Positions 1 through 37,311 are shown, numbered from the stretch's first letter. The stretch is 64,000 bases of DNA from Anaerolineaceae bacterium (GCA_039683035.1 JBDKSE010000020.1:165158-229157), one strand, 5' to 3'. Notes: generated by a model from the sequence alone, not told the origin. Numbers and translations: made by a program.

Positions 1-501
1 ATCCCGTATATCGACGGCGACGCCTATTACTGGTCATCGGTCAACCCTGATACCTACACTGGATATGCAGACAAACTCGCAAAAATGGGCGCTGCAGTGC
101 ATGCCGCCAAAGGGTTATGGATCGCTCCGGCAGCACCCGGATTCGATGCCCGCCTGGTGGGTGGAACCTCGACGGTGGACCGCAACAGCGGAGATACCTT
201 CCGCACGCAGATCAACACTGCCCTGGCGTCGGAGCCCGATGCGCTGGGTATCATCAGTTGGAACGAGTTCAGCGAGAATTCGCACATTGAACCTTCGGTC
301 AACTTTGGATCCACCTACCTGGATGTGCTCAGCCAGATCAATCAACTGCCTGCTCCGACCATCGGCGAGTTCGACTCGAGCGAGCAGGCAGCCGTAATTC
401 CGACCAACATCTTTCAATCCCGTACTGCAGCCCTGGCTGCGGTTGGCATCCTCTTTGTGGGATCCGTTGTTTTGATCCTTTTCAGAAGGAAAAGAAATTA
501 A
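1..501 (+). CDS. C-terminal part of a GH99-like exported protein with a C-terminal membrane anchor; the 5' end lies outside the window
   Basis: Frame 1 is open from base 1 (IPYIDGDAYYWSS...) to the stop at 499-501. The block ISWNEFSENSHIEPS parallels TTFNEWGEGTAVE in the C-terminal half of the 3659-5551 protein. The protein ends in a hydrophobic helix followed by RRKRN. Confidence 0.55.
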   Translation: MPYIDGDAYYWSSVNPDTYTGYADKLAKMGAAVHAAKGLWIAPAAPGFDARLVGGTSTVDRNSGDTFRTQINTALASEPDALGIISWNEFSENSHIEPSVNFGSTYLDVLSQINQLPAPTIGEFDSSEQAAVIPTNIFQSRTAALAAVGILFVGSVVLILFRRKRN

Positions 502-552
502 CAGGAGGGGTGGTTTGTGTTCGGGCATCTGCCCGGGTAAAGAAGGTGTGAA

Positions 553-20123: not shown

Positions 20124-20819
20124 ATGACGAAAAAGATCCTTGTGGTGGATGATGAACCGCAGATTGTGAAGGTACTGCAGCTTTACCTGGATCAGGCAGG
20201 GTTCCAGGTGGCGACTGCGATGGACGGCGACGAAGCGCTGGCGGTTTTTCGTCGGGAAAAGCCCGACTTCATCATTCTTGACCTCAACCTTCCGGGAATG
20301 GATGGACTGGATGTGTGCAAAGCCATCCGCAAGGATTCGAACGTTCCCATCCTGATGCTTACTGCACGCGTCGAAGAGGCAGACCGCCTGGTGGGACTGG
20401 AGCTTGGTGCCGATGATTACGTGGTCAAACCCTTCAGCCCGCGTGAGGTGGTGGCTCGTGTGCGCACCATTTTCCGCCGCTCTGAAGCTTCTCCTGTGGA
20501 GGGGGAAGTCGTGAGAGTCGGAGATCTGGAGATTGATCTTGGTTCGCACACGGTGCTTGAAGCAGGAAGTGCGATCGATCTGACGCCCACTGAATTCAAC
20601 ATTTTGATCACTCTCGCGCGAAACCCCCGAAGGGTTTTCTCGCGGCTTCAAATCATGGAACAATCGCAGGGCGATGCATATGAGGGATACGAGCGGACCA
20701 TCGATGCCCATATCAAGAACCTGAGGATGAAACTGGAACCCGATCCCCGCAAACCCAAATATATCCAAACTGTTTTTGGCGTGGGGTACAAGCTGGAAGT
20801 GGCGGGCGATGAAAAATAG
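20124..20819 (+). CDS. OmpR-family response regulator (canonical receiver)
   Basis: ILVVDDE, ILDLNLPGMDG, LMLTA and VKPF receiver motifs, plus a winged-helix C-terminus (IQTVFGVGYKL). Confidence 0.9.
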   Translation: MTKKILVVDDEPQIVKVLQLYLDQAGFQVATAMDGDEALAVFRREKPDFIILDLNLPGMDGLDVCKAIRKDSNVPILMLTARVEEADRLVGLELGADDYVVKPFSPREVVARVRTIFRRSEASPVEGEVVRVGDLEIDLGSHTVLEAGSAIDLTPTEFNILITLARNPRRVFSRLQIMEQSQGDAYEGYERTIDAHIKNLRMKLEPDPRKPKYIQTVFGVGYKLEVAGDEK

Positions 20820-22263
20820 TCTGCTCTTCAAATTGCTCGGTGCGTTTCTAATTGTCATCGCCATGGGCGCACTGGTAATGACATGGCTCACCAGCCGTGC
20901 CACGGAAAAGGCTTTTTCCCTGTATACCACCCGTAACGGGCAATATTGGGCTGAAATCCTTTCACCTTCGCTTGCTGACTTCTATCTCAATAAGAACAGT
21001 TGGCAGGGGGTGGCAGCTTACCTTCAAACATTTTCCGGCGTGAATATGAACATGGGCGCCGGGGGGATGATGGGACAGGGCAGGGGGTTTGGAAAAGGCT
21101 CGACAAACGGGAACGCGGTCATGTCGATGTCCGGCCAAAGGTTGATCCTGGCAGATGCCGCAGGAACAGTCATTGCCGATACCGGGGGAAGCCTGATTGG
21201 AAATCTGCTTGAGCCGGGGACGCTTTCGAGTGGCGCGCCGATTCTCGCCAATGGAGAGCAGGTGGGCACCCTCGTTGTCACCCCCGACACACTCGTGGCA
21301 GGCACCCCCGCCAGTGACTTCTTAACTTCCGTGAACAAGGCGATCATGAGTTCGGCAGGAATTGCTGCCGTTCTTGCCTTGATCATCGGGGCACTGCTTT
21401 TCTTGCAGATCATTTCTCCGGTGAGAAAGCTGAACCAGGCGGCTGCTGCCATTACCGCGGGTGACTTGGATCAGCGTGTGAGCATAAAGAGTCAGGATGA
21501 ACTGGGCGATCTCGGCAGCTCATTCAACCGCATGGCGGAAAGCCTTTCGAAGGCGGAAGATCAGCGAAAGAACATGATCGCCGACGTGGCTCATGAGCTG
21601 CGAACCCCCCTGGCAGCAATGCAGGGAACTCTCGAGGGAATCCAGGACGGTTTGATGCCTTTCGACCGGGAGCAGGTCGATTCACTGCTGGCTGAAACCA
21701 CCCTCCTTACGCGCATGGTTGGCGATTTGAGGTTGTTATCGCTGGCTGATGCGGGTGAACTTGTGCTTGAAAAACGCATGACATCCCCCGGCAGTCTGTT
21801 TGAGTCAATCGTCGAGCGCGCCGGGTCTCTTGCCCAGGTCAAAGGAATTAGCCTCAACCTATCTCTTCAACCTGATTTGCCCTCCATTTGGGTCGATCCC
21901 GACCGCATCACCCAACTGGTGAACAATCTGATCACCAATGCGTTGCGTTACACCCCCAGGAACGGCGAGATCAGGCTCAACGTGGCACACGCCGAAGGCG
22001 ATTCCTCTCTTCAGGTTTCTATCACCGATACCGGGCGCGGGATCGATGCCAGGGATCTGCCCTATGTCTTTGACCGGTTCTATCGGGCTGAAAAGTCACG
22101 CTCGCGGTCAAGCGGCGGCTCAGGCCTGGGTCTGGCCATTGTCAGGCAACTCGTCGAAGCGCACGGGGGAAAAGTGACAGCCGAAAGTCCCGTCTTCACC
22201 AGAGAAGACGGAACACGCTATGGAACAAGGATCAGCTTTTCGTTGCCATTGGGCGGAAATTAA
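20809..22263 (+). CDS. HAMP-domain sensor histidine kinase
   Basis: ATG 20809 overlaps the regulator stop. Two TM segments, HAMP, H-box ADVAHELRTPL, N-box NLITNALRYT and G-boxes DTGRGI / GGSGLGLAI. Confidence 0.9.
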   Translation: MKNSLLFKLLGAFLIVIAMGALVMTWLTSRATEKAFSLYTTRNGQYWAEILSPSLADFYLNKNSWQGVAAYLQTFSGVNMNMGAGGMMGQGRGFGKGSTNGNAVMSMSGQRLILADAAGTVIADTGGSLIGNLLEPGTLSSGAPILANGEQVGTLVVTPDTLVAGTPASDFLTSVNKAIMSSAGIAAVLALIIGALLFLQIISPVRKLNQAAAAITAGDLDQRVSIKSQDELGDLGSSFNRMAESLSKAEDQRKNMIADVAHELRTPLAAMQGTLEGIQDGLMPFDREQVDSLLAETTLLTRMVGDLRLLSLADAGELVLEKRMTSPGSLFESIVERAGSLAQVKGISLNLSLQPDLPSIWVDPDRITQLVNNLITNALRYTPRNGEIRLNVAHAEGDSSLQVSITDTGRGIDARDLPYVFDRFYRAEKSRSRSSGGSGLGLAIVRQLVEAHGGKVTAESPVFTREDGTRYGTRISFSLPLGGN

Positions 22264-22334: not shown

Positions 22335-22511
22335 CATCATATGAACGATTTCCATTTTGACCATTTCGTTACTTGATGTTACTGGAAACCTTATTGGTAA
22401 ACGTGTAATCCCGCCCTGAAAGAATTGAATAGCTGCACACATCCCGGGAGGATAATTGCGCCTCACCGGAGGGTATTTCTATTTCTGAAACAGACACGGA
22501 GGTTCTTTGAA

Positions 22512-25500
22512 ATGAAGAATGGGAAAATGATTGCGATCGTTGGCATGGGCGCCCTGCTGCCCGATGCTTTTGATGTTCCTTCATTCTGGAACAATGTCGT
22601 CAATGCGAGATACTCGGTGACAGAGGTCCCGGCTGATCGTTGGAACACGGACCTGTATTATGACCCCGATCATTCCGCAGTGGACAAGACTTATTCGAAG
22701 ATTGGCGCTTTTGTACGCGGCTACCAGTTTGATCCTCTGAAGAACGGTTTGATCATTCCTCCAAAGCTGCTTTCAGCGATGGATTTTACCCAGCAATGGG
22801 CGATCGCGGTGAGCCAGCAGGCGCTCAAGGATTACGGCTACCCTGAGCGCAAGCTCAACCCTGAACGGGTGGCGGTGATATTCGGCAACGCCAATGCCGG
22901 TGAATACCACTACCGTTCCACGTTCAGAATTCTCCTGCCGGAATACATCCAGGCATTGAAAGCCATCCCCGATTTTGAAAATCTTCCCGAACCGGTCAGG
23001 GAAGGGTTGATCAAGGGCTTCACCGAAAACATCCGCGCCAAGTCCCCTGCCATCAGCGAAGATACAATGCCGGGCGAGCTCTCGAACATCATCGCCGGGC
23101 GCGTTGCAAACATATTCAATTTCACCGGCCCCAATTTTGTCACCGACGCAGCCTGTGCCTCCTCGCTGGCAGCCATTCAAGCCGCCTGCCAGGGGTTGCT
23201 CGAGGAGAAATTCGATGCTGTGCTTACCGGCGGCATTGACAGGCATATGGGACCCGAGTCCTATATCAAATTCTGCAAAATTGGCGCGCTCAGCGCCGAC
23301 GGCAGCCGGCCGTATTCCGACGGGGCAAACGGCTTTGTGATGGGCGAAGGCGCCGTGGTCTTCCTGATGAAACGCCTGGAAGATGCCGAACGCGATGCTG
23401 ACCGGATCTACGCGGTCATCCGCGGCATCGGAGGAAGTTCCGATGGCAAAGGCAAGGGGATCACCGCGCCCAATCCGGCTGGTCAGCAACTGGCGATTTC
23501 ACGCGCCTGGCAGGATGCGCAGGTGGCTCCGCAGCAGGTTGGACTGGTGGAGGGGCACGGTACGTCCACCAAAGTGGGTGATGTGGCAGAGGTTGCCAGC
23601 CTGGATGCGATTTTTGGCCCGCTGGGTCTCAAGAACTCAAGCGTGGTGCTGGGTTCCATCAAGTCGAACATCGGGCACCTGAAAGGTGCTGCTGGTGCTG
23701 CCGGCTTGCTCAAGACGGTACTCGCCCTGCACCATCAAACCCTTCCCCCCACCGTCAATTTTGAGCGGCCGAATCCAAACATTGATTTTGCCCACCTGCC
23801 CTTCCGGGTGATCAATGCTGCCCAGGAGTGGCAGGTCAAAGAAGACGGGCACCGCATCGCCGGGGTGAGCGCCTTCGGCTTTGGCGGTACCAATTTCCAC
23901 GTGGTCATGGAAGAGTATTTCCCCGGTATCTCAGGCGATGAAACCGCTTCCCATACCGTGCCGGCGAAGATCGAAACAATGAGCCAGGCATCAATATCGC
24001 AGCCGTCTCCGCTCCCCCAGTCGACAGCACAAAGTCGCGAGGTTTCCGGTGTGGACGTAGACGCCGTCAGGGAATTCGTTCTTTCTGTGGTGGCTGAAAA
24101 AACCGGTTATCCCGTTGAAATGCTCGAGCTGGATCTGGATCTGGAAGCCGACCTGGGCATCGATACGGTCAAGCAGGCGGAGCTTTTCGCCACTGTCCGC
24201 ACTCACTACGATATTCCGCGGCGCGAGGACCTGAAACTCTCGGATTACAACACGCTGGCCAAGGTGGTGGGCTTTGTCACCGACGCACATGGCAGCGGGA
24301 AAACTGACGCAACCGTGAATGTGCAGGTCGAAAACGCAACCGCTGAACCTCCCTCGACTTTACCTGCGGCTTCACCCGCAATGACCGACGCTGTGCCGGA
24401 CGAACCGCTCAAGCCCTACCAGGGTTTGTTCTTCGCCTCGGCATCAGACATTCAGGCATTGCAGGCAATGGTGCAGCATCAGATTGCCGTCTTGAAATCA
24501 GGCGGCACCTATGAATCGCATTGTCCGTCCGGGCAGGAATTGGCCGGGCGTGAAAGGATCGCCATTGACTATGCCGCTGACGACGAACTGGTCAAGCGGC
24601 TGGAAAAGACACTCGAGGCGTTCAAGAACGATACTCCCAGCACCTGGAAAGCCATGCAGGCGCACGGCGTTTATCGCGGAAGCGGCAAGCCCGGCAAAGT
24701 GGCGTTCCTGTTCCCCGGGCAGGGCTCCCAGTATGTGAATATGCTGTTGGATCTGCGCGACACGGAACCCCTCGTCCGCGATACCTTTGACGAAGCAGAC
24801 AGGATCATGACCCCGATACTGGGGCGGCCGTTGACAAGCTTCATTTACACCAATGGAACCGATGAAGAACTCAAAAAAGCAGAACAGGAGCTGAAGAATA
24901 CTGCCATCACCCAGCCGGCTATGTTGACTGCCAATGTGGCAGTGATGCGTGTGCTCAACAAATACGGCGTGCATCCTGACATGGTGATCGGCCACAGCCT
25001 GGGAGAATATGCCGCGCTGGTTGCCGCAGGCGTGCTCAGCTTCGCCGAGGCGCTGGAAGTGGTCAGCGCCCGCGGGCGGGAGATGAGCAAGATCAAAGTG
25101 GAGGATCCGGGCTGCATGGCAGCCGTCTCGGCGCCGCTGGAAAAGGTACAGGAGATCATCCAATCCATTGACGGTTATGTGGTGATCGCCAATATCAACA
25201 GCCCTCTGCAATCCGTCCTGGGCGGCTCGACAGAAGCGATTGACAGGGCGATCGCTCTGTTCACTGAGGCGGGTTTCCAGGCGTCCAAAATCCCGGTCTC
25301 GCACGCTTTCCATACCAAAATCGTTGCACCCGCCAGTGAGCCGCTGCGTTCAGTCATCGCGCGCATGAACGTGCGGCGCCCGACTCTGCCGGTCGTCGCC
25401 AACGTCACCGGCGAACTCTACCCGGCGGACCGCGAAGCGATCCTGGACCTGTTGGCTGACCAGGTAGCTTCGCCGGTGCAGTTTGTCAAAGGCATGCAGA

Positions 25501-28500
25501 CCCTGTACCGTGAGGGTGTGCGGGTCTTCATCGAATCGGGTCCGAAGCGTGTTCTGAATGCATTAGCCCAGGACAACCTGAAGGACCTGACAGACGTGGC
25601 CATTATCGCCACGAATCACCCGCGCAAGGGAGGCAAGGCCAGCTTCAACGAAGCACTGTGTGGTATCTATGCTGCCGGAGTCCCTGCCACCAATGTGGCC
25701 AACGAATCCGCTCAGCTTGCAGAACCTGCCCGGGCAGATGAAGCTCATGCCCAACCGGGTTCATTCGACGGGACGCTCCCAATCACCGGCTCGGTGGTCA
25801 TCACAGGTGCAGGTCTTGGTTTGCCTGGGAAGAAGAACCATGTCTTCGATGATGACAACATCAATAAAATTCTTCGCGGTGAAATGCGGATTGAAGGCAT
25901 CGATGACAATTCGCGGCAGGCGATCCTGGAAAAGCACGTAACGCGTCTGGTTAAAAGCGACGCCGGAGCGGTCATGGAAGAGATTACCGACCTCGACAAG
26001 GTTGTCAAGCTCGCTGGTCAATCTGGTGAATTTGACCTGGCGGACGAGTTTGGGGTTCCAGAAGACAGAGTGGAAGCCCTGGACATATCTTCAAAGCTGG
26101 CGATTGCTGCAGGAATCGAAGCCTTGAGAGATGCAGGAATACCGCTGGTCATGTCCTATCGCAAAACCACAAAAGGCACGTGGCTTCCTGACCGATGGAA
26201 GCTGCCTGTATCGATGCGTGATGATACAGGGGTTATTTTCGGATCAGCTTTTCCGGGTTTGAACCGCATCGTTGAAGAATCTGACCGCTTCTACCAGGTG
26301 AAACTGCTTGAGCGGCAGCTCGAAGAGGTCAGATCATTGATGGAGGCCGTCAAGGCATCCGGGATATCTTCCGGAACCTCACTTCTTGAATATATGGAGT
26401 GCCATGCGGCAGATCTTGAAGCAAGGATTGGCGAGTCGGTCTACCAATTTGACCGCAGATATGTATTCCGTATTCTTGCGATGGGTCATTCGCAGTTTGC
26501 CGAATATATCGGCGCGCGTGGACCGAATACCCATGTCAACGCAGCCTGCGCGACGACTACGCACGCTTTATCAGTGGCGGAGGATTGGATCCGAACCGGA
26601 CGCTGCCGCCGTGTCGTGGTCATTTCGGGAGATGACGTAACGAAGGAAAATTCACTGGCGTGGATTGGCTCTGGCTTGTTTGCCAGCGGTGCTGCCACTA
26701 GTGAGGGAAACCTGCGTCTTGCTGCAATCCCCTTTGACAAACGGCGCAACGGCATGATCGTTGGTATGGGCGCTGCAGCTCTGGTGGTGGAGAGCGAGGA
26801 TGCAGCTCGGGAAAGGGGCGTGAGAGGAATTGGTGAAATCCTCTCCTCCGTCACCGCCAACAGCGCTTTTCATGGCACAAGGTTGGATGAATTGCATGTC
26901 AGCGAGATGATGGACCGACTTTTGCAAACTGCCGAAAGAAGGTTTGGAATCGACCGGCATGCCATTGCACACGAAACCGTCTTCATGTCGCACGAAACCT
27001 ACACACCGGCACGCGGCGGCAGTGCCAGCGCTGAAATTCATGCACTGCGCGCCTGCTTTGGCGAGCAGGCCAACCAGGTGATCATCGCCAATACCAAGGG
27101 CTTTACCGGGCACTCGATGGGGGTGGGCATTGAAGATGTGGTAGTCACCAAAGCCCTGGAAACCGGCATCGTTCCGCCCATTGCCCATATCCAGGACGGC
27201 TTTGAGCCGGATCCCGAACTGGGTGATCTGAACCTGTCAAAGGGCGGGGCTTATAACCCCCAATACTCTCTGCGGTTGGGCGCCGGCTTTGGATCACAAA
27301 TCGCCATGACCCTGGTACGCAGAATTCCGGGCGCCGGAGAGCGGATCGACCGCGAAAGGTACTCAAAGTGGCTGGCGAGCGTCAGCGGTCATGATCATGC
27401 GGAAACCGAGCGCGTCAACCGCACGCTGCGTATTAAAGATCAGGGTGTTCCGGCAAATGAGCCAGCGGCGTCCACCTGGCAATACGGGTATCTGCCCTCG
27501 CAATGGGCAATGTCTAGAATTACGGCATCTGAACCGAACCCCGTTGTGATGCCTGCCAGCGTACCCGTGCATTCCACGGAAGTTGAACCGAAGCCTTCTG
27601 AGACGCAAAGCATGCCGACCCCGGCAAGTTCGAGCCCGCAAAGCGAGGAGATCAAACGGCATGTGCTGGCAGAAGTCAGCGAGAAGACGGGTTATCCCGT
27701 CGAGATGCTGGATCTCGATCTGGACCTCGAAGCCGACCTGGGTATCGACACGGTCAAGCAGGCAGAGTTGTTTGCTGCCATTCGCACGCATTACGGTATT
27801 CCCCGCCGGGAGGACTTGATACTCGCCGATTACAACACGCTTTCCAGGGTGATCGGTTTTGTAGAGGAGAACCTGGGTGGTGCAGGGCAAGCCTTAATCG
27901 CTGAAGCAGCCCCTTCACCGATTGTCGCCCAGGATCAAGAGGTTGCTCCAACACCATCCGCCGAGACCGAGGCGATCAAAGCGCACGTGCTTTCCGTGGT
28001 CAGCGAGAAGACGGGTTATCCCACCGACATGCTGGATCTCGACCTTGATCTGGAAGCTGACCTGGGCATCGACACGGTCAAGCAGGCAGAGTTGTTTGCT
28101 GCCATCCGCACCCATTACGGCATTCCCCGCCGCGAAGATCTGATCCTTGCAGAGTACAACACACTGGCCAAAGTGATCGGCTTCGTGGAAGATGCTTTGG
28201 CTGCAACCAGCCAACAAGCCACTGACGCGGCAGACGGCACGGCAGCAGAGAACTCAGAAAAAGAGACTTCTGCAGCTGGTGAAGCAAGTGGGTCGTTGGC
28301 TTTCAGGGCCCCCGCACTGGTTTTGCTGCCCAAGACAGAACTCTGCCAGAAAACGGACGTGTTGCTTGCCAACCGGGAAGTGCTGATTGTCGCCAATTCA
28401 ACCAAGACAGGCAGCTCGCTTTCGAAAAAGCTGAAAGCTGCCAAAGCCAACCCTGTGATTGTGGATATTTCCACTGTGAAGGAAAAAGTGGAACAAATGG

Positions 28501-30794
28501 CGAAGGCCGGAACGCTGGCCGGAGTTTACTATCTCGCGGGGCTGGAAAGCACGTTTGATCTGCAATCCTCTCCCCGCGAGGCGTGGGTTCCACAGCGCTC
28601 ACAACTGCTCGACCCGCTGTTCGACCTGGCAAAGGTGCTTCCGGAATCCGCTTTCCTGGTCTGCGCTACATCGATGGGTGGTTTGCTGGGGTTCATCAAT
28701 AGCGAAAATCCGTCAGGTGGACTGGTCAGCGGATTCACCAAAGCCTTGAAGCGCGAGAGACCCGGTCAGTTGATCAAGGTGGTCGACTTCAGTTCCGCGG
28801 AGACACACCAGAACATCGCCGAAATCCTGGTCAAGGAGACAATGAACGATCCGGTGACCGTGGAAATTGGCTATGAAGGCGGATCACGGTTCTCGGTCAA
28901 GCTCAACGAAATGGATATGCAGGCGGTCAAAGAGACTACCCTGCCAAAAGGCTGCACCTTCGTTGTCAGCGGCGCCACCGGCGGCATCACTGCCCCCGTT
29001 CTGTTCGATCTTGCAAAAGCAACGCAGGGATCTTTCTACCTGTTGGGGCGGACGAAGCTACCCTCAAAAGAAGATGCCAACCTGCAGATGCTGAAGAATG
29101 ACCGGAATGCTTTCCGAAAGGAATTGCAGAAACGATCGCAGGAAAAGGGCGAGAAGGTGACGCCTGTGCAGCTCGATCAGAAGATCACGGCTCTGGAACG
29201 CGCGGCATCCATGATCGACTTGCTCGACTCCCTGCGTTCGACGGGGGCGGCGGCAAAATACATCCTCTGTGATGTGACTGATCCGCAGGATGTGGATGCG
29301 GCGGTCGCAGAAATCAAACACGCAACCGACCATGTGGATGTCTTCATCCACGCCGCGGGCATTGAAAAGAGCCGCAAGGTGGAAAGCAAGAGCGCAGAGG
29401 AATTCGAGCAGACTGTTGCAGTAAAAGTGGACGGTTTCCAATTCCTCTTCAAGGCATTGGAGAATGCCGGCAGGCTGCCTGGGTCAATCGTTTCCTTCTC
29501 TTCGGTGGCTGGCAGGTTTGGCAATGCAGGACAGACGGATTACAGCGCCGCAAATGATGCGCTTTCCAAACTGGCTTTCTGGCTGCCCTCACAGTATCCT
29601 GCGCTTCACTCGGTTTCGCTGGATTGGGGCGCCTGGGCTGAGGTGGGCATGGCGAGCCGGGGGAACATCCCGGCGTTGATGGAGCGCGCTGGCATTGAGA
29701 TGCTCAAGCCGGAAACAGCAGCTCCGATGGTCCGGCAGGCTCTTGAGCTGGGTCTATGCGGCGAGTATGTCGTCGCGGGCTCGCTCGGATCGCTGGATTC
29801 AGGCTGTCAGAACAACTGCGGCGTGGATGTCGAGACAGCCAACCAGGCGCTGCGCGCCGGAGATCCCATCCACAAGATGTTCAGTTCGGTGACCGCGTTC
29901 AGCGTGGAGCAGGGCATCCGGTTGGAAGCCGAGCTTGATCCCGCCCAGGAATTCTACTTGCACGATCACATGATCAATGGCATTCCGGTGCTGCCCGGAG
30001 TGATGGGCATCGAGGGGTTCTCGGTTGCCGCAAAGCATATCGCTTCGGTGCTGGGATCGAATCACGCTCCCTTCGAAGTAAGCCGCCTGGAAAACGTGCA
30101 ATTTCTGGCGCCCTTCAAGTTTTACGGCAACAAGGCGCGCACCATCCAATGGAACGCGGTCGCCTTCCGCACCCTCGAAGGAATCAGGGTCGAAGCCAGG
30201 CTGGAATCGGATGTGACCCGCAGAAATGGCGGAGTCGAGCATATGCTGCACTTCACCGGAACGGTCTTTCTTACTCCAGACGTACCGGCAGAAGAGCAGA
30301 TGGTCAAACCGCCGAAGTGGAATCAAAAGAACTCTGTCTCATCCGACGACATTTACAAGCTGTTCTTCCACGGCCCGTCTTTCCAGGTGCTGGAATCGGC
30401 CCAACTGAGCAACGGGAAAGTGCTTGGTAAATTCAACAAGAAGGTGGTTGAAATTGCCGCCGATGACCCCGCGCTGTTTGCAACCCCGCTGCTCATCGAA
30501 ATGTGTTTCCAGACCGCAGGCTTGTACCAGGCAGGAGCTACCGGCGTGCTGGCGCTTCCGCAATCCGTTGGGTCGCTCAAGCTCTTCAAACGACCGCTCA
30601 ACGGCGTGGCGATTTTCGCCGAGGTGAACCCGCGCATGGAAGGCGAGTCTTATGTCTTTGACGCCAGGGTGGTGGATGCAAAGGGAAATGTCTTCCTCGA
30701 GCTGACGGATTACCGCACCTCTGCGCTGCCGTACCCCGCCGAACAGCAACTGGTGGAACCGCTGAAGAAGCTGGTCCCGCTGGCTGGAGACTGA
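22512..30794 (+). CDS. PfaA-like iterative type I polyketide/fatty-acid megasynthase, KS-CP-AT-KS-CP-CP-KR-DH
   Basis: 2760 codons from ATG 22512, with GGAGG 9 nt upstream. Catalytic motifs are listed in the domain features below. The ORF-track start at 22425 adds 29 non-conserved residues. Confidence 0.9.
   Translation: [2760 protein letters not shown]
22527..23925 (+). other. Domain: ketosynthase 1 (Cys-His-His intact)
   Basis: [11 protein letters not shown] (Cys codon 23154-23156), [23 protein letters not shown] and [10 protein letters not shown]. Confidence 0.85.
24051..24290 (+). other. Domain: carrier protein 1 (PfaA-ACP-like, Thr at the expected Ser site)
   Basis: [34 protein letters not shown]; the Thr codon ACG is at 24165-24167. 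Confidence 0.75.
24690..25570 (+). other. Domain: acyltransferase (malonyl-type)
   Basis: [17 protein letters not shown] (Ser codon 24996-24998) and SHAFHT. Confidence 0.85.
25780..27320 (+). other. Domain: ketosynthase 2 (Cys-His-His intact, so not a CLF)
   Basis: [12 protein letters not shown] (Cys codon 26547-26549), [18 protein letters not shown] and GAGFGSQ. Confidence 0.75.
27645..28199 (+). repeat. Tandem duplication encoding carrier proteins 2 and 3 (units about 27645-27875 and 27966-28199)
   Basis: Long near-identical DNA runs, for example gagaagacgggttatccc...ggatctcga...gacacggtcaagcaggcagagttgtttgctgcca in both units. Period is about 320 nt. Thr codons are at 27750-27752 and 28074-28076. 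Confidence 0.85.
28290..29790 (+). other. Domain: ketoreductase (structural plus catalytic subdomains)
   Basis: [10 protein letters not shown] Rossmann motif near 28960 and [20 protein letters not shown] (Tyr codon 29541-29543). Confidence 0.8.
29880..30780 (+). other. Domain: PKS-type (double hot-dog) dehydratase
   Basis: HxxxGxxxxP motif as [10 protein letters not shown] (His codon 29967-29969). The position is C-terminal, as in PfaA. Confidence 0.75.
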
Positions 30795-30848
30795 ATCAGA
30801 ATTGGAGGCTCTCCCCGGGGATGATTCCATTTCCGGGGAGGAAAAAAT

Positions 30849-31559
30849 ATGACAATCTATTGGACATACACATCCATTCAGTCGATCTTTGACTTGTTTC
30901 CGGCAGGGGAGTTGCGAGACCTGCTGGGAAAAGACGAGCAAGCCTATCTTGATCATCTGCGGTTTGAAAAACGCCGCCGGGAATGGCTGGCGGGCAGACT
31001 GGCGCTCAAAGCCTTATTGATTGAATCCTTCCAAAACCTTGCTTCGAGAAGATTCAATCAATTGCAGATACTGAAAGAGGAAGGGGGGGCTCCGCGTCTC
31101 GCATTGGATGAGGGGGAAACTCCCATCCCGATTTCGCTCAGTCATTCCAATGGATCTATCTTTTGCGCCTGTTCCACCGGCCAGTCCCCCATAGGTGTGG
31201 ATTTGGAGCTGATCGAGGAACGCTCCCAGGCGTTCATCAGCGATTATTTTACGCCTGAAGAAATCAGCCAGGTCGAACGGCATACACCGCAAAAACGATC
31301 CCTGTATTCCACCCTGGTTTGGAGTGCCAAGGAAGCTGTCTTGAAGGCCCTTTCCATTGGCTTGAAGATGGATACCCGCAGGATCAATGTGAATCCGGAA
31401 TCCACTTCGTTTGAAGCAGGGTGGAAAATTCCCTGCAGCCCGGTTTTGATTCGGCAAAAAGAATCTCTGCGCCTTTTGTGGCGCAGAGAGGGTTCCTTCG
31501 TTCTGACGGTGTGCTTCGATGGTGCTCTATCCGTTGATTTTCGCCGGATCCTTATTTAG
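30849..31559 (+). CDS. Sfp-type 4'-phosphopantetheinyl transferase (PfaE-like)
   Basis: RBS GGAGG. Motifs WLAGRLALKAL, SLSHSNG, GVDLE and WSAKEAVLKAL. Confidence 0.85.
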   Translation: MTIYWTYTSIQSIFDLFPAGELRDLLGKDEQAYLDHLRFEKRRREWLAGRLALKALLIESFQNLASRRFNQLQILKEEGGAPRLALDEGETPIPISLSHSNGSIFCACSTGQSPIGVDLELIEERSQAFISDYFTPEEISQVERHTPQKRSLYSTLVWSAKEAVLKALSIGLKMDTRRINVNPESTSFEAGWKIPCSPVLIRQKESLRLLWRREGSFVLTVCFDGALSVDFRRILI

Positions 31560-33189
31560 CCATATTTTCTGACGGCTTAATGTTGGCGATCTGGCTGGCA
31601 AAGCGGATCCCCTGGGCTTCGAGGGTTCGAATGCGCCACAGATAGGCTGCGCCCTGCAGAAGCTGCATGGATACATCCACAACCTGGCGGTTCTCAGGTT
31701 TTTCCAGATAGGTGTTCCTTGCCCAGTCGTTGAATGCGCCCATGGATGGACCGCACCAGATCTGGTAGTCCATCTCGCGCCCTTTTTCACCAATGCTTGC
31801 CCAGCGCGAAGACAAACCCAAATACCAGCGGAAGATGAGCGCCATCTTGTCTTTGGGCTTTTTATTCGCGCGTTCGATCTGCTTGGGGTCGCGCTCGCTG
31901 AAGAATTTCACGCATTCGTTCCAGACGGAGTCCAGGCTCTGCTTGAAGATCGTTGATTCCAGCTTTTCACGCTCGGCAGGGGGGATTTCATCGATGGATT
32001 CGTATCTTTGATAAATCTCGTACAGCTTCAGACCGCGCATGGCAAACATGGTCCCGCGTTTGAGCACCTGCACCTTGACGCCCATTTCGAACATATCGCT
32101 GGCGGGAGCCATGGCAACGTCGGTGGTTTCCATCTGCGAAAGGAGAGCTTTGCTGTGAGCCGAGGCTCCAGATTCCACGCACCCCTGATTGACGGACCCG
32201 GTGGTGACGTAGGCCGCCCCCATCATGAACGCCGCCAGCGCGGCTGCCGGGGTCGCAATCCCTCCGGCTGCGCCGATCCTCGTCATTTGGGCAAACTGAT
32301 ACTTTTCCTGCAGGGTATCTCTCAGCTGGATGATTGCGGGCAGGATGCTCACCAGCGGGCGGTTATCGGTATGTCCGCCTGAATCGGCTTCAACCGTCAC
32401 ATCGTCTGCCATGGGCACGAATTGGGCGAGCCGGGCTTGATCGGCGGTCACCTTGCCCTCTGCCAGGAGTTGATTGACCATATTTTGATCGGCAGGCTGA
32501 AGGAATTTTTGCGCGACTTCCTTGCGCGAGACCTTGGCGATGATGCGGTGGTTGATCTTCACTGTACCGTCAGCGCCCTGCGATAATCCGGTCAGGCGGT
32601 ACCAGACCAGGTTGGGGGTCAGGGTCAGGTAAGCCGAAGCTTCGATGGCGCGGATGCCGTGCTGGATGTACAACTCCGCGGTTCTGGCTTCCAAAGCCGG
32701 TTCAAAGGGGCTGTTGATCAGGTTGAACAGGTAGGGGCTGTCGCCCAGTTCGGTCCGGATGCGGTCGATTGCTTTTTCCACGCGGGTTGGAAGGCAGCCG
32801 CCTGCACCAAAGGATCCCATCAAGCCTGCCCTGCCAAGCGCGATCACCATCTCTTCCGAGGAGATCCCATTGGCCATCGACCCGGCGTAAAGCGGGTATC
32901 TTGTTCCATAGGTTGTCTTGAACGCTGGATCCCCTAGATCAGTGGGCTCCAGTTCAGGGCAAAAACCGAACATTTGAAAACCATTATTTGACGTCGCTCC
33001 CGCCGCTCCTTCATGGGCGGTGAAATATTCGCCGTTTTTTCGCAAAAGGTAAAAAGGCCTGTCCAGTCTCAACAGGGCAGCGCACAACAAATCGGCGGTC
33101 GCTGGTTCGGGTATACCGTTATTTGCCCATCCAAACCCGGCAGTCTGACCAGGATGCAAAGCCCTGACCAAAGGTTCTTGTGAATTCAA
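31552..33189 (-). CDS. pfaD: PfaD-family FMN-dependent enoyl reductase (trans-acting ER)
   Basis: 545 aa. LGDPAFKTTYGTRYPLYAGSMANGISSEEMVIALGRAGLMGSFGAGG and ...EADSGGHTDNRP... are typical of PfaD. TTG start at 33189 with GGAGGT 5 nt upstream. Confidence 0.9.
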   Translation of the reverse strand: MNSQEPLVRALHPGQTAGFGWANNGIPEPATADLLCAALLRLDRPFYLLRKNGEYFTAHEGAAGATSNNGFQMFGFCPELEPTDLGDPAFKTTYGTRYPLYAGSMANGISSEEMVIALGRAGLMGSFGAGGCLPTRVEKAIDRIRTELGDSPYLFNLINSPFEPALEARTAELYIQHGIRAIEASAYLTLTPNLVWYRLTGLSQGADGTVKINHRIIAKVSRKEVAQKFLQPADQNMVNQLLAEGKVTADQARLAQFVPMADDVTVEADSGGHTDNRPLVSILPAIIQLRDTLQEKYQFAQMTRIGAAGGIATPAAALAAFMMGAAYVTTGSVNQGCVESGASAHSKALLSQMETTDVAMAPASDMFEMGVKVQVLKRGTMFAMRGLKLYEIYQRYESIDEIPPAEREKLESTIFKQSLDSVWNECVKFFSERDPKQIERANKKPKDKMALIFRWYLGLSSRWASIGEKGREMDYQIWCGPSMGAFNDWARNTYLEKPENRQVVDVSMQLLQGAAYLWRIRTLEAQGIRFASQIANIKPSENMAK

Positions 33190-33697: not shown

Positions 33698-34039
33698 CTA
33701 CTCCTCCCATTCGAATCTTCGCGGCTCCGGGCAGATCTCGATCTGCTGATCCGCTTCCAGCGAATAAATCGGAACTGAATCAGGGAAGAGGATCACGCCG
33801 CCGGCCGGCAGGCGTTTTTCCCTGAGGATGGCAGCGAACACCAGCTGCTCGTCTTCTGAAAGCACCGGGTCCAGCCCGCGTCTCCGGGCAATGAACTTCG
33901 GCGCGATCGGAAAGCCGTCCAACTCAATTTTGGCGGGCAATTTCCCATTGGAGCGTATGTATTCTACGATTTGAGGCCTGGAGGCGTAAACCACGGCGGT
34001 GAATCTCAATTCCTGTTCGGTGTACTTGTGCAGTTTCAT
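33698..34039 (-). CDS. Hypothetical protein (113 aa)
   Basis: ATG 34039 with AAGGAG 7 nt upstream. The ORF-track N-terminal extension to 34243 has no RBS and an Arg-rich, GC-artefact composition. Confidence 0.55.
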   Translation of the reverse strand: MKLHKYTEQELRFTAVVYASRPQIVEYIRSNGKLPAKIELDGFPIAPKFIARRRGLDPVLSEDEQLVFAAILREKRLPAGGVILFPDSVPIYSLEADQQIEICPEPRRFEWEE

Positions 34040-34397
34040 TTTGAATCTCCTTAAGATGCATGAATCCGGCTTGCGAGAAGCCAAAGGTGCGCTGCACCAG
34101 GGGAGATTATTTTGGGGGCGAAAAGGGAAGGAAGCCCGGTTAAAACAAAAACGGAGCTGTTTTTCGAGAGGATCTTCTCGCGCATCGAGACGCTTGCGTC
34201 TCAGGCACCGATGCCGTCTCCAGGCCGGTTGCCAGTCCGCCAACGGCGGACATTCCTGATGTACTTTTGTTTATACGAAAAAGGAGGGGGGAAGTCAAGA
34301 GGGGAGGGATTTGATGTATTGATAAGCAATTGTTAAGGTTTGAGAACAAAAGGTTCTGTATACTATATGACATGGGGGATTAATTAGTAGACCTCGT

Positions 34398-34422
34398 AAT
34401 TACTAATAGAGCCTATTAGAAT
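34398..34422 (+). repeat. Left copy of the bipartite direct repeat AATTACTAAT-N7-ATTAGAAT
   Basis: aattactaat at 34398-34407 and attagaat at 34415-34422. The same two blocks recur at 36497-36515. The reverse complement attagtaat is at 34621-34629. Confidence 0.5.
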
Positions 34423-34831
34423 CCAACTATTTTGTTAAATTGTCATCAAGGAATAATATTTTGTTTACTGTACTAAAGGATTCACAAATTGCCATTGAAG
34501 CTAATTCAATTTAGGCTGGCTTGAATTTTCGAAATTGCTTAGCCTGTATACAAATAAGTGAATGATTATAAAAACTTCTATGTTACGGAACGATCTTAAA
34601 AGACTCAAAAGTATCATTGGATTAGTAATAATAAGCCATTCTTTGTGAAGATTTCCAATGAATATATGCTCATTTTCGAATTTTTGAGAGGAAGAAAGTC
34701 AAGACTTCGCCGTTGTTCAACAAATGCAAAGTCTGATTTTTGAGCTCTCCAAACCTTCTGCAACTTAACTATTGATCTAGCCCCAATTTACTCCGCGAGA
34801 AAATTACCATATCAAGAGGATTATCCTAAAT

Positions 34832-35602
34832 ATGACTGATGAGAATTTCTTTTCAAATCCAGAGCCACTACTCGCAACGCTCGCCAACCTTTTTGCTTCC
34901 TCTGGAGCTGCGCGTGAAGTTGCTGTTCTAGCAAATTCAACAGCGAGAATCAAACAAACTAGTTATGATAATTGGAATGGCGGGACCTATGGGTATTCAT
35001 TATTCTTGCAGATACCTAATTGGCTCTACAATCAAGTAATTAGCGAAATTGAGAGTATCGAGAAATCTCTCTCTGAGAAGGCAAATCTGCTCTCAAGAGG
35101 TAATGAGAATGAGTTTTTAGAAAGAGTATACGTAACTCCGCAAATTGCAGATGATAATGAATGGAGGGAAAAAGCAAAAGCTTGGTTATCAGGTGATGGG
35201 ATTTCTAATCAAGGACGTGTTCATTCGGACAATATTCCATCAAGGACAATGGATGGCTTGTTATTTAGATCCCAACCAGAAATATTTTTATACATTGCAC
35301 TTAAATCATCTGGAGTTTCATTCGCTCCATTAGCAGTATTTATTCGCGGGGGAGAGAGCTACAAAAGAATTGAACCTGACTTCTTTATTGTAAAGGATGG
35401 CATTTCCTTGGTAGTTGAAGTTGATGGGGACACTGTCCATCATGAAACCCCTGTTGAAGCTCACTCAAGAACATCCATGCTTGTTTATGAAGGGGTTCAT
35501 ATTGAGAGGGTTAGGGCAAGCGAATGTGAATCACAGTTTTTAGCAAACGCTTGTGCGAAGAAAATTATGACCGTAATTGAGAAATTAAAATCTACTCGCT
35601 AA
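34832..35602 (+). CDS. Unknown N-terminal domain fused to a DUF559/Vsr-like PD-(D/E)xK endonuclease domain
   Basis: The C-terminal 110 aa, FRSQPEIFLYIALKSSGVSF...RIEPDFFIVKDGISLVVEVDGDTVHH...YEGVHIERVRASE, follow the (P)DF...hhVEhDG..H...R pattern of DUF559/Vsr-like nucleases. I did not recognise the N-terminal 140 aa or so. Confidence 0.55.
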   Translation: MTDENFFSNPEPLLATLANLFASSGAAREVAVLANSTARIKQTSYDNWNGGTYGYSLFLQIPNWLYNQVISEIESIEKSLSEKANLLSRGNENEFLERVYVTPQIADDNEWREKAKAWLSGDGISNQGRVHSDNIPSRTMDGLLFRSQPEIFLYIALKSSGVSFAPLAVFIRGGESYKRIEPDFFIVKDGISLVVEVDGDTVHHETPVEAHSRTSMLVYEGVHIERVRASECESQFLANACAKKIMTVIEKLKSTR

Positions 35603-35719
35603 AAAATTTTTTGCAACAGATGTATTACTACACTACATCAGGTTTGTTTTGACGTGTCACCACTGTTGAAAATTAAAGCACCGTAAGCCAAATCTTAAAT
35701 TAGGAAAACGGGAGCATTT

Positions 35720-36496
35720 ATGATCGAGAGGAAATCACAAAATAGAAGAAGAATCTTCATACGGGCCAAAGATAAGGTATGCCAGATTTTCAGTTTTAAA
35801 CAATCTGCTGATGGATCAATATATTGTTCATCATCGGATTTCGATGATGCGAATTGGTTTAGTGCAGTATTAACAGAAATTGGACCTCAACTAGTAACAA
35901 CTGAGCCAGTTGGGGAGGGAAAGATAAGCTTTCACGGGTCTGGCATGGTAGCGATCCGACCAAATGACGATCCAAAAGGACACCGATTAATAATTAAAGG
36001 TAATAATTTATTTAACAAAATGGAGGAAAAAGTTGGCATCCGCCATCTCTTTACAATTTTCTCGAAAGAACCGAAGTATCAACCGACATCTTCCCCCATT
36101 TTTAATCGTGATGGTGATTATTGCATAGAAGCGAACGAAGAATTAAAGCCATTCGTGTTAGTTTTCTTTGCTGCACCACAAGGGCTATCGATCAGTTTCC
36201 AATTCAATCTGCACATGGATGACATGATAAATATACCAAACGATTTTTTGGGACTTAATGGTTTTAGTCTTCGGTACCATGATATTCTTTGGTTTGCATA
36301 TCGGACAAACCATATGGAAAAGTGGCCCAAACAAGCTCAAGTAGTCTATCATGATGGTTATTCATTTCCAATTTTTATTGGAACTGGATTAGGTATAGGC
36401 AGATGGGAGTTCCGACAGCCTCTGTATTCCTTAAACGGTAATAATCTTGAAATAATATGCAATCGAAATTACTCTGATGATTATTCAAACCCTTGA
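35720..36496 (+). CDS. Hypothetical protein (258 aa), no recognisable domain
   Basis: ORF with GGGAG 6 nt upstream of the ATG. It has the same strand and AT-rich composition as the nuclease-fusion gene, and there is no terminator hairpin in the 117-nt spacer. Confidence 0.55.
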   Translation: MIERKSQNRRRIFIRAKDKVCQIFSFKQSADGSIYCSSSDFDDANWFSAVLTEIGPQLVTTEPVGEGKISFHGSGMVAIRPNDDPKGHRLIIKGNNLFNKMEEKVGIRHLFTIFSKEPKYQPTSSPIFNRDGDYCIEANEELKPFVLVFFAAPQGLSISFQFNLHMDDMINIPNDFLGLNGFSLRYHDILWFAYRTNHMEKWPKQAQVVYHDGYSFPIFIGTGLGIGRWEFRQPLYSLNGNNLEIICNRNYSDDYSNP

Positions 36497-36515
36497 AATT
36501 ACTAATCATTAGAAT
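36497..36515 (+). repeat. Right copy of the bipartite direct repeat AATTACTAAT-N1-ATTAGAAT
   Basis: It starts immediately after the TGA of the 35720-36496 ORF, with aattactaat at 36497-36506 and attagaat at 36508-36515. Confidence 0.5.
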
Positions 36516-36532
36516 TAATCCTTAGCGGAGTA

Positions 36533-36608
36533 CGTAGGGTTCGCCGCTGACGCACCATTTTGCCAGGCACCGTTCAGGTGGTGCGTTCACTTTTGAACGC
36601 ACCCTACG
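36533..36608 (+). other. GC-rich structured element at the right islet border
   Basis: Outer pairing CGTAGGGT (36533-36540) with ACCCTACG (36601-36608). Perfect hairpin GGTGCGTTCA-CTTT-TGAACGCACC (36580-36603). A third related copy, TGACGCACC (36548-36556), could pair alternatively with 36580-36589. Confidence 0.35.
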
Positions 36609-36726
36609 GCTGCCTGCACTCGACTTTCCTTACCAATTCAAAGCAATTGTCTATACATTTGGGAACCCAAGGACCCTATAATGTTCGTAACGTAAGCCTT
36701 TCCTCAGCGAATCATGGAGGTGTTGG

Positions 36727-37134
36727 ATGAATCTGCAGGCGGTTTTGCCAGAACTCAACATTTGGGCAATCCTGGTGGCCATGCTGGTGCATACTGTAAT
36801 AGGATTGGCCTGGTTTCAGAAGGGGATATTCGGCAATGCATGGTCTGCGCTGACGGGAGCAAGTTTGAATCCGTCAACGAAGTGGATCCCTGCCGGTTTG
36901 ATTGGGCATCTGATCATGGTTTTTGTGCTGGCGATCATCATTCGACTGGCAAATGCCACCACGCTGCTTGAAGGCGCACTCATCGGCGCCATCGCATGCA
37001 TCGGTTTTATGGCTACACTGGAAGCCGGCGAGCTGATCTGGGAGAAGATACCATTCAAGCTTTACTTGATCCGGATCGGGAATCAATTGATCGGGATGAT
37101 GGTCAGCGGAGCGATTTTGGCTGTGTGGAGATAA
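36727..37134 (+). CDS. DUF1761-family membrane protein
   Basis: NIWAILVAMLVHTVIGLAWFQKGIFGNAWSALTG N-terminus and four hydrophobic segments. Confidence 0.7.
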   Translation: MNLQAVLPELNIWAILVAMLVHTVIGLAWFQKGIFGNAWSALTGASLNPSTKWIPAGLIGHLIMVFVLAIIIRLANATTLLEGALIGAIACIGFMATLEAGELIWEKIPFKLYLIRIGNQLIGMMVSGAILAVWR

Positions 37135-37238
37135 TGCGCGACAATACAAACGACGATCAAAGCGGTAAAAAGCAAACCTCAGTTGGTCTGTCCCTTCATG
37201 TGAGGCTACATCTCATTTTCCCCCATTAAATAAAAAAG

Positions 37239-37311
<73 letters not shown>

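Follow-up and report, generated by a model that had tools for sequence, protein, structure and literature searches.

The closest described relative of the system reported here is the Type R cluster, in which a single pfaA homolog with the domain order ketosynthase (KS)-malonyl acyltransferase (MAT)-chain length factor (CLF)-acyl carrier protein (ACP; three to six copies)-ketoreductase (KR) is followed by a 4'-phosphopantetheinyl transferase (PPTase) gene (Shulse & Allen 2011, PLoS One 6:e20146, PMC3098273). The passages of that survey that deal with Type R name Koribacter, Solibacter, Elusimicrobium, and Roseiflexus as hosts, describe the product as unknown, and place an acetyl-CoA-carboxylase gene between the synthase and the PPTase gene in Koribacter. 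We have analyzed a stretch of 64,000 nucleotides from an Anaerolineaceae bacterium (GCA_039683035.1, JBDKSE010000020.1:165158-229157), referred to below as the window, in which positions 22512 to 33189 hold three genes, namely, a multidomain synthase gene, a PPTase gene, and a gene for a PfaD-family enoyl reductase (ER). These genes fit a PfaD-coupled variant of the Type R cluster with a relocated carrier domain, and the family they belong to is real, widespread, and was cataloged bioinformatically in 2011. Our analysis indicates that the three gene products probably constitute a self-contained, iterative, and fully reducing machine that resembles a type I fatty acid synthase (FAS) and would assemble saturated chains on carriers linked through threonine (Thr).

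The synthase is encoded by one long open reading frame (ORF) on the plus strand (22425..30794), and its ATG at position 22512 is preceded by GGAGG 9 nt upstream. The protein is identical to NCBI entry MEN6572626.1 from the metagenome-assembled genome (MAG) of an Anaerolineaceae bacterium, under the sole name "SDR family NAD(P)-dependent oxidoreductase." When the synthase was scanned against Pfam, both in full length and in seven pieces, it gave strong matches, far beyond chance, in the order KS1-CP-AT-KS2-CP-CP-KR-DH (Table 1), in which CP, AT, and DH stand for carrier, acyltransferase, and dehydratase domains. The initial annotation of this DNA, made from the sequence alone, had given the same order, and its ORF of 2760 codons as well as every KS1, AT, KS2, KR, and DH motif that it quoted are found in the translation. 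The whole protein scored 1011.4 bits against the PfaA model TIGR02813 (cutoff 1010.1), in five separate stretches, the order being broken by the extra KS and the relocated carrier. The AT reached 228 bits against the fabD model TIGR00128 (cutoff 260.9), and the KR, whose structural subdomain begins near residue 2000, matched PfaA model positions 1879-2338. With KS, AT, CP, KR, and DH in cis and ER and PPTase encoded next to them, the set of activities is complete, which argues for a FAS-like function.

The most unusual feature of the synthase, overlooked in the initial annotation, is a Thr at the phosphopantetheine position of all three carriers. Each of them reads DLGIDTV, with the residue in question being Thr552 (codon ACG at 24165), Thr1747 (codon at 27750), and Thr1855 (codon at 28074). 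In HMMER alignments, this Thr coincides with the phosphopantetheine serine (Ser) of solved ACPs, such as those of PigH (DLGVDSI and DLGIDSV) and of the AcpP type (DLGADSL). The AlphaFold2 (AF2) model of carrier 3 (pLDDT 91.5) shows a canonical four-helix ACP whose helix II begins with this Thr, and it superimposes on type II ACPs with best TM scores of 0.84 to 0.88 and a root mean square deviation (rmsd) of ~1.5 Å. The conservation of this residue was assessed at three levels. (i) Among the 120 closest homologs, Thr was present in all 405 carrier motifs. (ii) In 150 diverse representatives, ~335 Thr were found versus ~12 Ser at the same position; one of these proteins was all-Ser and one was mixed. 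(iii) At the DNA level, 81 loci from at least 7 phyla encoded 215 Thr and 1 Ser (n = 216), with the Thr codons ACC (107), ACG (89), ACA (14), and ACT (5). Ser is the sole replacement seen, so that the hydroxyl is retained. Since a single transversion would convert Thr into Ser, these data indicate that purifying selection acts on Thr as such. In addition, no other part of the synthase is as well conserved as the carriers, with a mean column identity of 76% versus 43%. We found no report in the literature of Thr-type carrier proteins or of the DLGIDTV motif; a preprint on a ladderane FabF concerns the KS cysteine.

The two KS domains are of different types. The best NCBIfam match of KS1 was PfaA (423 bits over model positions 9-471), its best PDB matches were KS domains of modular and trans-AT polyketide synthases (PKSs), and its catalytic triad was kept in 197 to 198 of 198 members. 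For KS2, the best profile was fabF (TIGR03150), but the score of 131.6 bits is far below the cutoff of 493.75; KS1 obtained 225.2 bits with the same model. The Cys/His/His/Lys set of KS2 was kept in 224 to 225 of 225 members (Cys in 224). Among the 60 listed of its 72 PDB sequence matches, FabF, FabB, and KasA-type proteins were overwhelmingly represented, and the PfaC KS-CLF structure 6riw was absent. The AF2 model of KS2 (pLDDT 80.3, pTM 0.82) shows a complete FabF fold with insertions of ~130 amino acids, and the top 46 PDB matches obtained with it in Foldseek were FabF or mitochondrial KAS, with the actinorhodin KS/CLF following at ranks 47 to 49. Cys conservation, sequence matches, profile, and fold together rule out that KS2 is a CLF or a PfaC-type KS, and they bear out the earlier proposal of a second KS with a full Cys-His-His set. 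We also considered the 260-residue N-terminal region of KS2 as a separate domain and rejected this option, since a single, complete FabF fold that has helical insertions accounts for the model. Because the catalytic residues are conserved and the fold of KS2 is FabF-like, both KS domains are predicted to be active.

When only the KS2 region was used as the query of an exhaustive phmmer search, this KS2 type was retrieved in 633 clusters (50% identity) at E < 1e-30, and a scan of one genome per species identified 183 loci that carry the synthase family. Full-length homologs occur in Anaerolineae, Acidobacteriota, Actinomycetota, Verrucomicrobiota, Gemmatimonadota, Bacteroidota, and Myxococcota. 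The hosts of the loci were Chloroflexota, Acidobacteriota (Bryobacteraceae, Solibacteraceae, and Terriglobales), Gemmatimonadales, Verrucomicrobiia, Polyangiaceae, and Saprospiraceae/Lewinellaceae, as well as, within the Actinomycetota, Solirubrobacterales, Acidimicrobiales, Ilumatobacteraceae, and Nanopelagicales. The best 120 database matches were all full-length, shared the same Pfam set, and were 52 to 75% identical to the window protein; those named by source all belong to Chloroflexota of the Anaerolineae type, among them the cultured Anaerolinea thermolimosa (WP_062190512.1) and Longilinea arvoryzae (WP_075074776.1). When six window domains were mapped on more than 180 full-length members, the scaffold KS1-AT-KS2-(CP)n-KR-DH was constant, and 1 to 6 carriers per member were sited behind KS1, AT, or KS2 or at the N terminus. 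The arrangement of the window is the commonest in the mapped sample (41 proteins), yet it is one permutation among many. The initial annotation was thus right in placing a carrier between KS1 and AT but not in regarding this order as special: because the carriers are mobile and linker-tethered on a fixed scaffold, there is nothing mechanistically particular about KS-CP-AT. Nor is the architecture singular, as had been claimed, given the number of clusters and loci and a core that was already listed as Type R.

Several further observations concern the family as a whole. Some of its larger members (3,500 to 4,000 amino acids) contain an additional KS1-like pair. In public databases, synthases of 2,700 to 3,200 amino acids are named "SDR family NAD(P)-dependent oxidoreductase," "malonyl CoA-acyl carrier protein transacylase," or "KR domain-containing protein," and because of such pipeline names the family is effectively invisible in metabolic reconstructions. 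A paper on Anaerolineae genomics that we consulted contained nothing on lipid synthesis. One contig (L070:819-17261), binned as a Thermoplasmatota archaeon, encodes a synthase of 3,309 amino acids and a carboxylase-like protein of 2,142 amino acids; of the four carriers of this synthase, one has Ser (TCG) and three have Thr. This case could reflect misbinning or horizontal transfer into an archaeon.

The genes flanking the synthase were compared in 80 related loci, 43 of which had full flanks. (i) A PPTase homolog follows the synthase in every locus with enough downstream sequence. In the window, the corresponding gene had been labeled Sfp-type; the PPTase assignment stands, and only the label is loose, since the protein scored 60.8 bits against the HetI model (cutoff 370), its best PDB sequence matches are the PPT domain of fungal FAS, and no Sfp match was obtained in the PDB at E < 0.01. 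(ii) Synthase, PPTase, and PfaD genes are syntenic in 12 Anaerolineae-type loci, including the window, with the PfaD gene convergent and 0 to 3 kb beyond. The convergent PfaD-type gene proposed for the window scored above the cutoff of its family model (Table 1), and its product is, as judged from sequence, the trans-acting ER of the synthase. (iii) The PfaD gene is missing from the loci of the other phyla and of a few Chloroflexota; here, the synthase is directly preceded, in the same orientation, by an acyl-CoA dehydrogenase (ACAD)-like gene (550 to 590 amino acids), which in turn is usually preceded by genes for the electron transfer flavoprotein (ETF) subunits EtfB and EtfA and for an FeS/CCG oxidoreductase (705 amino acids). 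This FeS/CCG-EtfB-EtfA-ACAD operon was seen at L013:3946-9567, in L012, L026, L032, L047, L057, and L077, and in ~40 other loci. Among the 43 loci with full flanks, 23 had ACAD only, 11 PfaD only, 9 neither, and none both (Fisher P = 2.9e-5, with phylogeny not corrected for and several of the "neither" loci being frameshifted nanopore MAGs). We infer that this alternation represents a nonorthologous displacement of the enoyl-reduction step, in which the upstream operon may provide an ETF-dependent enoyl-carrier reductase or a desaturating dehydrogenase. (iv) Some members carry an N-terminal region of ~700 amino acids that is NMO/PfaD-like (P0155 and P0230) and others a C-terminal PPTase (P0181 and P0161). 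Because the ER is fused to the synthase in some members and the PPTase in others, their partnership with it is independently supported. These four fused proteins approach an all-in-one ER-KS-AT-KS-CPn-KR-DH-PPT polypeptide.

Genes for carboxylases were linked to the synthase in two forms. In Acidobacteriota, Actinomycetota, and Verrucomicrobiota, a single-chain, eukaryote-like enzyme of 1,850 to 1,916 amino acids, with biotin carboxylase (BC), biotin carboxyl carrier protein (BCCP), ACC_central, and carboxyltransferase (CT) regions, is encoded between the synthase and the PPTase. In the Anaerolineae loci L005, L006, L008, L009, L040, and L048, separate CT (514 to 528 amino acids), BC, and BCCP genes are found immediately upstream of the synthase. 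Apart from acetyl-CoA carboxylase (ACC), ER-type, and PPTase genes, nothing recurs beside the synthase in the 80 loci: there was no conserved thioesterase (TE), tailoring, transport, or release gene and, within 10 kb, no PfaC-like or FabA-like gene. A search of all ORFs of the 80 loci with Escherichia coli AcpP retrieved only the carriers of the synthases themselves and no discrete ACP gene in the flanks, a result that says nothing on type II FAS (FAS II). In loci of the Solirubrobacterales type, the PPTase gene is followed by one for an AMP-binding, acyl-CoA ligase-like protein (L077:24891-26510), which hints at release as a free acid and reactivation in that lineage. In the window, Pfam scans of essentially all sizeable ORFs detected no second KS/AT gene, PfaB-type AT, FabA-like DH, PfaC, TE, reductase or condensation release domain, or acyltransferase. 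The absence of PfaB, PfaC, a FabA-type DH, and a release domain noted initially is thereby confirmed for the 64 kb.

From the domain content, active sites, partners, and fusions described above, we infer how the Thr residues may be modified, how the KS domains may be employed, and what the product, its release, and its physiological role may be. The dedicated PPTase would convert the three carriers into the holo form by attaching phosphopantetheine to Thr552, Thr1747, and Thr1855. The FabD-like AT would load malonyl units, and probably the starter as well, from CoA. KS1 and KS2 would prime and extend the chain, probably with different chain lengths or stages falling to each of them. Every cycle would then be completed by KR, the PKS-type DH, and PfaD acting in trans, resulting in a saturated or largely saturated acyl chain. 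A TE would not be required, as the acyl-carrier thioester could be delivered to acyltransferases encoded elsewhere or be off-loaded by the AT. A FAS without a release domain is normal, since acyltransferases can use acyl-carrier thioesters directly or the AT can off-load the chain; the missing release domain, initially presented as an unexplained anomaly, is therefore none for a FAS. The carboxylase linkage, the lack of tailoring genes, and a neighborhood of unrelated non-lipid genes suggest a role in bulk fatty acid synthesis. Whether this extends to supplying the bulk of the membrane acyl chains in Anaerolineae is a proposal to which we give slightly less than even weight.

A number of points weigh against such a FAS-like machine with Thr-linked carriers. 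O-Phosphopantetheinyl-threonine is, to our knowledge, not an established modification, and all ACPs known to us bear the arm on a Ser that is among the most invariant residues in biochemistry. Ser-to-Thr mutants of ACPs are poor substrates or nonsubstrates of known PPTases. The need for two active KS domains in the synthesis of a simple saturated product is unexplained, no carboxylase gene is linked to the synthase in the window, and we found no biochemical characterization of any family member in the literature. One might accordingly suppose that the Thr carriers are not phosphopantetheinylated and serve as structural or docking modules of a synthase that uses a discrete Ser-type ACP in trans or CoA thioesters. 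Known PPTases are Ser-specific, and the Ser is missing at the canonical site of all carriers of the synthase, as this explanation would have it. However, the synthase is accompanied by, and sometimes fused to, its own PPTase; the carriers occur in 1 to 6 copies, as in functional tandem ACPs; their motif is near-invariant, with a substitution that keeps the hydroxyl; they adopt the canonical ACP fold with Thr at the start of helix II; and no discrete ACP gene was present in any flank. We consider unmodified carriers improbable.

A further alternative retains the enzymology and changes the product: a normal FAS II would serve the membrane, and the synthase would make a specialized lipid whose chain is taken over by enzymes with genes elsewhere. 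Very-long-chain, hydroxylated, or diol/alkyl-chain precursors as well as storage or envelope lipids come into consideration. In the parts of the 2011 survey that concern them, the Type R clusters are cataloged among pfa-like "secondary lipid" clusters, and their hosts are not listed among the organisms lacking FAS II (PMC3098273), which suggests an accessory pathway there and also counts against a role as the main FAS. The tandem carriers are typical of synthases of the polyunsaturated fatty acid (PUFA) type, the presence of two KS domains suggests a chain-length specialization, and the ligase-like gene of L077 is compatible with free-acid release and reactivation. Set against this are the absence of conserved tailoring, transport, and release genes in the 80 loci, the linkage of carboxylase genes in two forms, which points to a high malonyl-CoA flux, and the broad conservation of the synthase, at 57 to 75% identity, across Anaerolineae, where it stands beside unrelated non-lipid genes. 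A specialized lipid is thus possible, although we regard it as rather doubtful. The PfaA-like character of KS1, AT, KR, and DH, which score best against the PfaA model, with the whole protein barely passing its cutoff, and the adjacent PfaD gene would in turn be expected of a reduced PUFA or polyene synthase with PfaB-, PfaC-, or FabA-type partners elsewhere in the genome. No PfaC-like or FabA-like gene was encountered in the flanks of the 80 loci or in the window, however; the CLF position is occupied by a FabF-like KS that is predicted to be active, and strict anaerobes or soil bacteria, not known to produce PUFAs, make up many of the hosts. This last explanation appears to us highly improbable.

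Essentially all other sizeable ORFs of the window were covered by the Pfam scans, and none was lipid-related. Their products comprise Tad pilus proteins, Nramp and MFS transporters, ProS, sugar-modifying enzymes, an HtrA-type protease, a two-component system, and a purine/molybdopterin dehydrogenase cluster together with an ABC importer. The two-component system, an OmpR-type response regulator and a HAMP histidine kinase (20124-22263), is encoded just ahead of the synthase and in the same orientation. We considered it as part of the cluster and rejected this, as the same place is occupied by an acetyl-CoA synthetase in L024, a Ser/Thr kinase in L042, and a DEAD-box helicase in L044; a regulatory link to the synthase is doubtful because this neighborhood is not kept in related Anaerolineae loci. 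An upstream regulatory RNA was likewise discarded, with Rfam finding only one tRNA in the window and promoter and terminator scans remaining at background level. A stretch at 34000-37311 has a low GC content (39% versus ~55%), contains two ORFs without a Pfam match (34832-35602 and 35720-36496), and is adjoined by a tRNA-Lys(CTT) gene (37238-37311, minus strand); it may be a small integrated element.

Table 1. Positions of the synthase domains and partner genes in the window and of carboxylase genes at related loci
Feature	Nucleotide position	Residues	Strand	Remarks
Multidomain synthase gene	22512..30794		+	2760 aa, KS1-CP-AT-KS2-CP-CP-KR-DH
KS1, PfaA-type	22530..23924	7-471	+	Pfam ketoacyl-synt and Ketoacyl-synt_C; C215 (DAACASS), H349 (EGHGTST), H389 (KSNIGH)
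Carrier 1	24072..24281	~521-590	+	PP-binding match; between KS1 and KS-AT linker
AT	24705..25634	732-1041	+	Acyl_transf_1, 170 bits; FabD/PfaA-MAT-like; S829 (GHSLGEY), H934 (SHAFHT)
KS2, divergent FabF-like	25791..27440	~1094-1643	+	Pfam; C1346 (NAACATT), H1494 (SHETYTP), H1534 (GFTGHS); ~130 aa insertions including two long helices
Carrier 2	27663..27866	~1718-1785	+	PP-binding
Carrier 3	27987..28187	1826-1892	+	PP-binding match
KR	28956..29642	2149-2377	+	Pfam KR, 111 bits; GATGGIT, Y2344 (YSAAND)
DH, PKS-type double-hotdog	29883..30743	2458-2744	+	PKS_DH_N and PS-DH matches; H2486 in HMINGIPVLP (HxxxGxxxxP)
PPTase gene	30849..31559		+	236 aa; divergent two-lobed ACPS-superfamily 4'-phosphopantetheinyl transferase
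PfaD-family flavin mononucleotide (FMN) ER gene	31552..33189		-	TIGR02814, 650.8 bits (cutoff 449.25); convergent with PPTase gene, 8 nt overlap
Single-chain carboxylase loci	L013:19250-24997; L077:18566-24172; L057:17328-22967			
Split carboxylase gene loci	L005:6395-9986; L009:6176-9817			

The interest of this locus lies in features that are family-wide, namely, Thr carriers with a private PPTase, two KS domains predicted to be active, alternative ER modules, and the linkage to carboxylases. A Thr that is fixed across at least 7 phyla, is under purifying selection, and comes with its own PPTase makes it testable whether threonine can carry the arm, and why. Possible reasons for Thr are orthogonality to the AcpS and AcpH of the host or chemical stability. 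Tentatively, the family might represent the first O-phosphopantetheinyl-threonine carrier system with a coevolved PPTase and, at the same time, a distinct bacterial type I FAS, with PfaD or an ACAD/ETF/FeS module as its ER and a linked ACC, on which the membrane lipids of Anaerolineae, and possibly those of other phyla, mainly depend, although the odds of all this holding are rather low. Were it the main FAS, it would be a new entry in the short list of bacterial routes to membrane fatty acids, and the alternation of PfaD and ACAD/ETF would, if confirmed, constitute a new solution for enoyl reduction. As the synthases are misnamed, metabolic reconstructions have probably misread how lipids are made in Anaerolineae, Acidobacteriota, and many Actinomycetota of soil, all of which are abundant organisms.

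The comparison with known systems can be summarized as follows. (i) With Type R as described in 2011, the window shares the KS1-AT-KS2-CPn-KR scaffold, here with 3 carriers, and the PPTase gene downstream. Full-length acidobacterial homologs from MAGs of Solibacteraceae, Bryobacteraceae, and Acidobacteriaceae are 45 to 54% identical and show the Koribacter-like ACC insertion, a likeness drawn from the MAG sequences; close relatives of these homologs are named Candidatus Korobacteraceae. Unlike in the published description of Type R, a carrier of the window is relocated between KS1 and AT and a PfaD gene, specific to Anaerolineae, is adjacent. The PKS-type DH, present family-wide, does not appear in the 2011 listing of Type R domains, the "CLF" of that listing corresponds to a Cys-His-His KS, and the passages on Type R make no mention of Thr in the carriers. 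(ii) With the PfaA-E systems of Shewanella, Moritella, and Photobacterium, the system shares KS1, MAT, KR, and DH domains that match the PfaA model in order, tandem carriers with an LGID-x-hydrophobic-K motif, a PfaD-family ER, and a dedicated PPTase. It differs in that the window lacks PfaB and PfaC (KS-CLF-two FabA-like DH), has an extra FabF-like KS after the AT, and has DLGIDTV carriers, with Thr in place of the Ser of the LGIDS motif. For these four reasons, a methylene-interrupted PUFA is not expected as the product, in line with the initial view that a classical PUFA is unlikely. (iii) KS2 resembles FabF (KAS II) in its complete fold and its Cys-His-His-Lys set, but it is only ~22% identical to it, stays far below the FabF cutoff, contains the insertions mentioned above, and is embedded in a megasynthase; unlike CLF or KS-beta proteins, in which the position is usually Gln, it keeps the active-site Cys. 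(iv) As in the type I FAS of animals and of fungi/Corynebacteriales, one system unites all activities needed for a full reductive cycle, and, as in the fungal/Corynebacteriales enzymes, an FMN TIM-barrel-type ER and a PPTase are found fused to the synthase in certain members. The domain order differs from that of type I FAS, for example, KS-MAT-DH-ER-KR-ACP-TE or the fungal alpha/beta arrangement with a malonyl/palmitoyl transferase (MPT), and so does the origin (PfaA-type KS/KR/DH plus a FabF-like KS). There are two KS domains and multiple mobile carriers, the ER of the window acts in trans, no TE is present, and release of the MPT type would be speculative. Taken together, the sequence comparisons indicate that in function the system would be comparable to a type I FAS while standing outside the animal and fungal/Corynebacterium-Mycobacterium-Nocardia (CMN) FAS families and that it is related to Pfa systems but is not a PUFA synthase.

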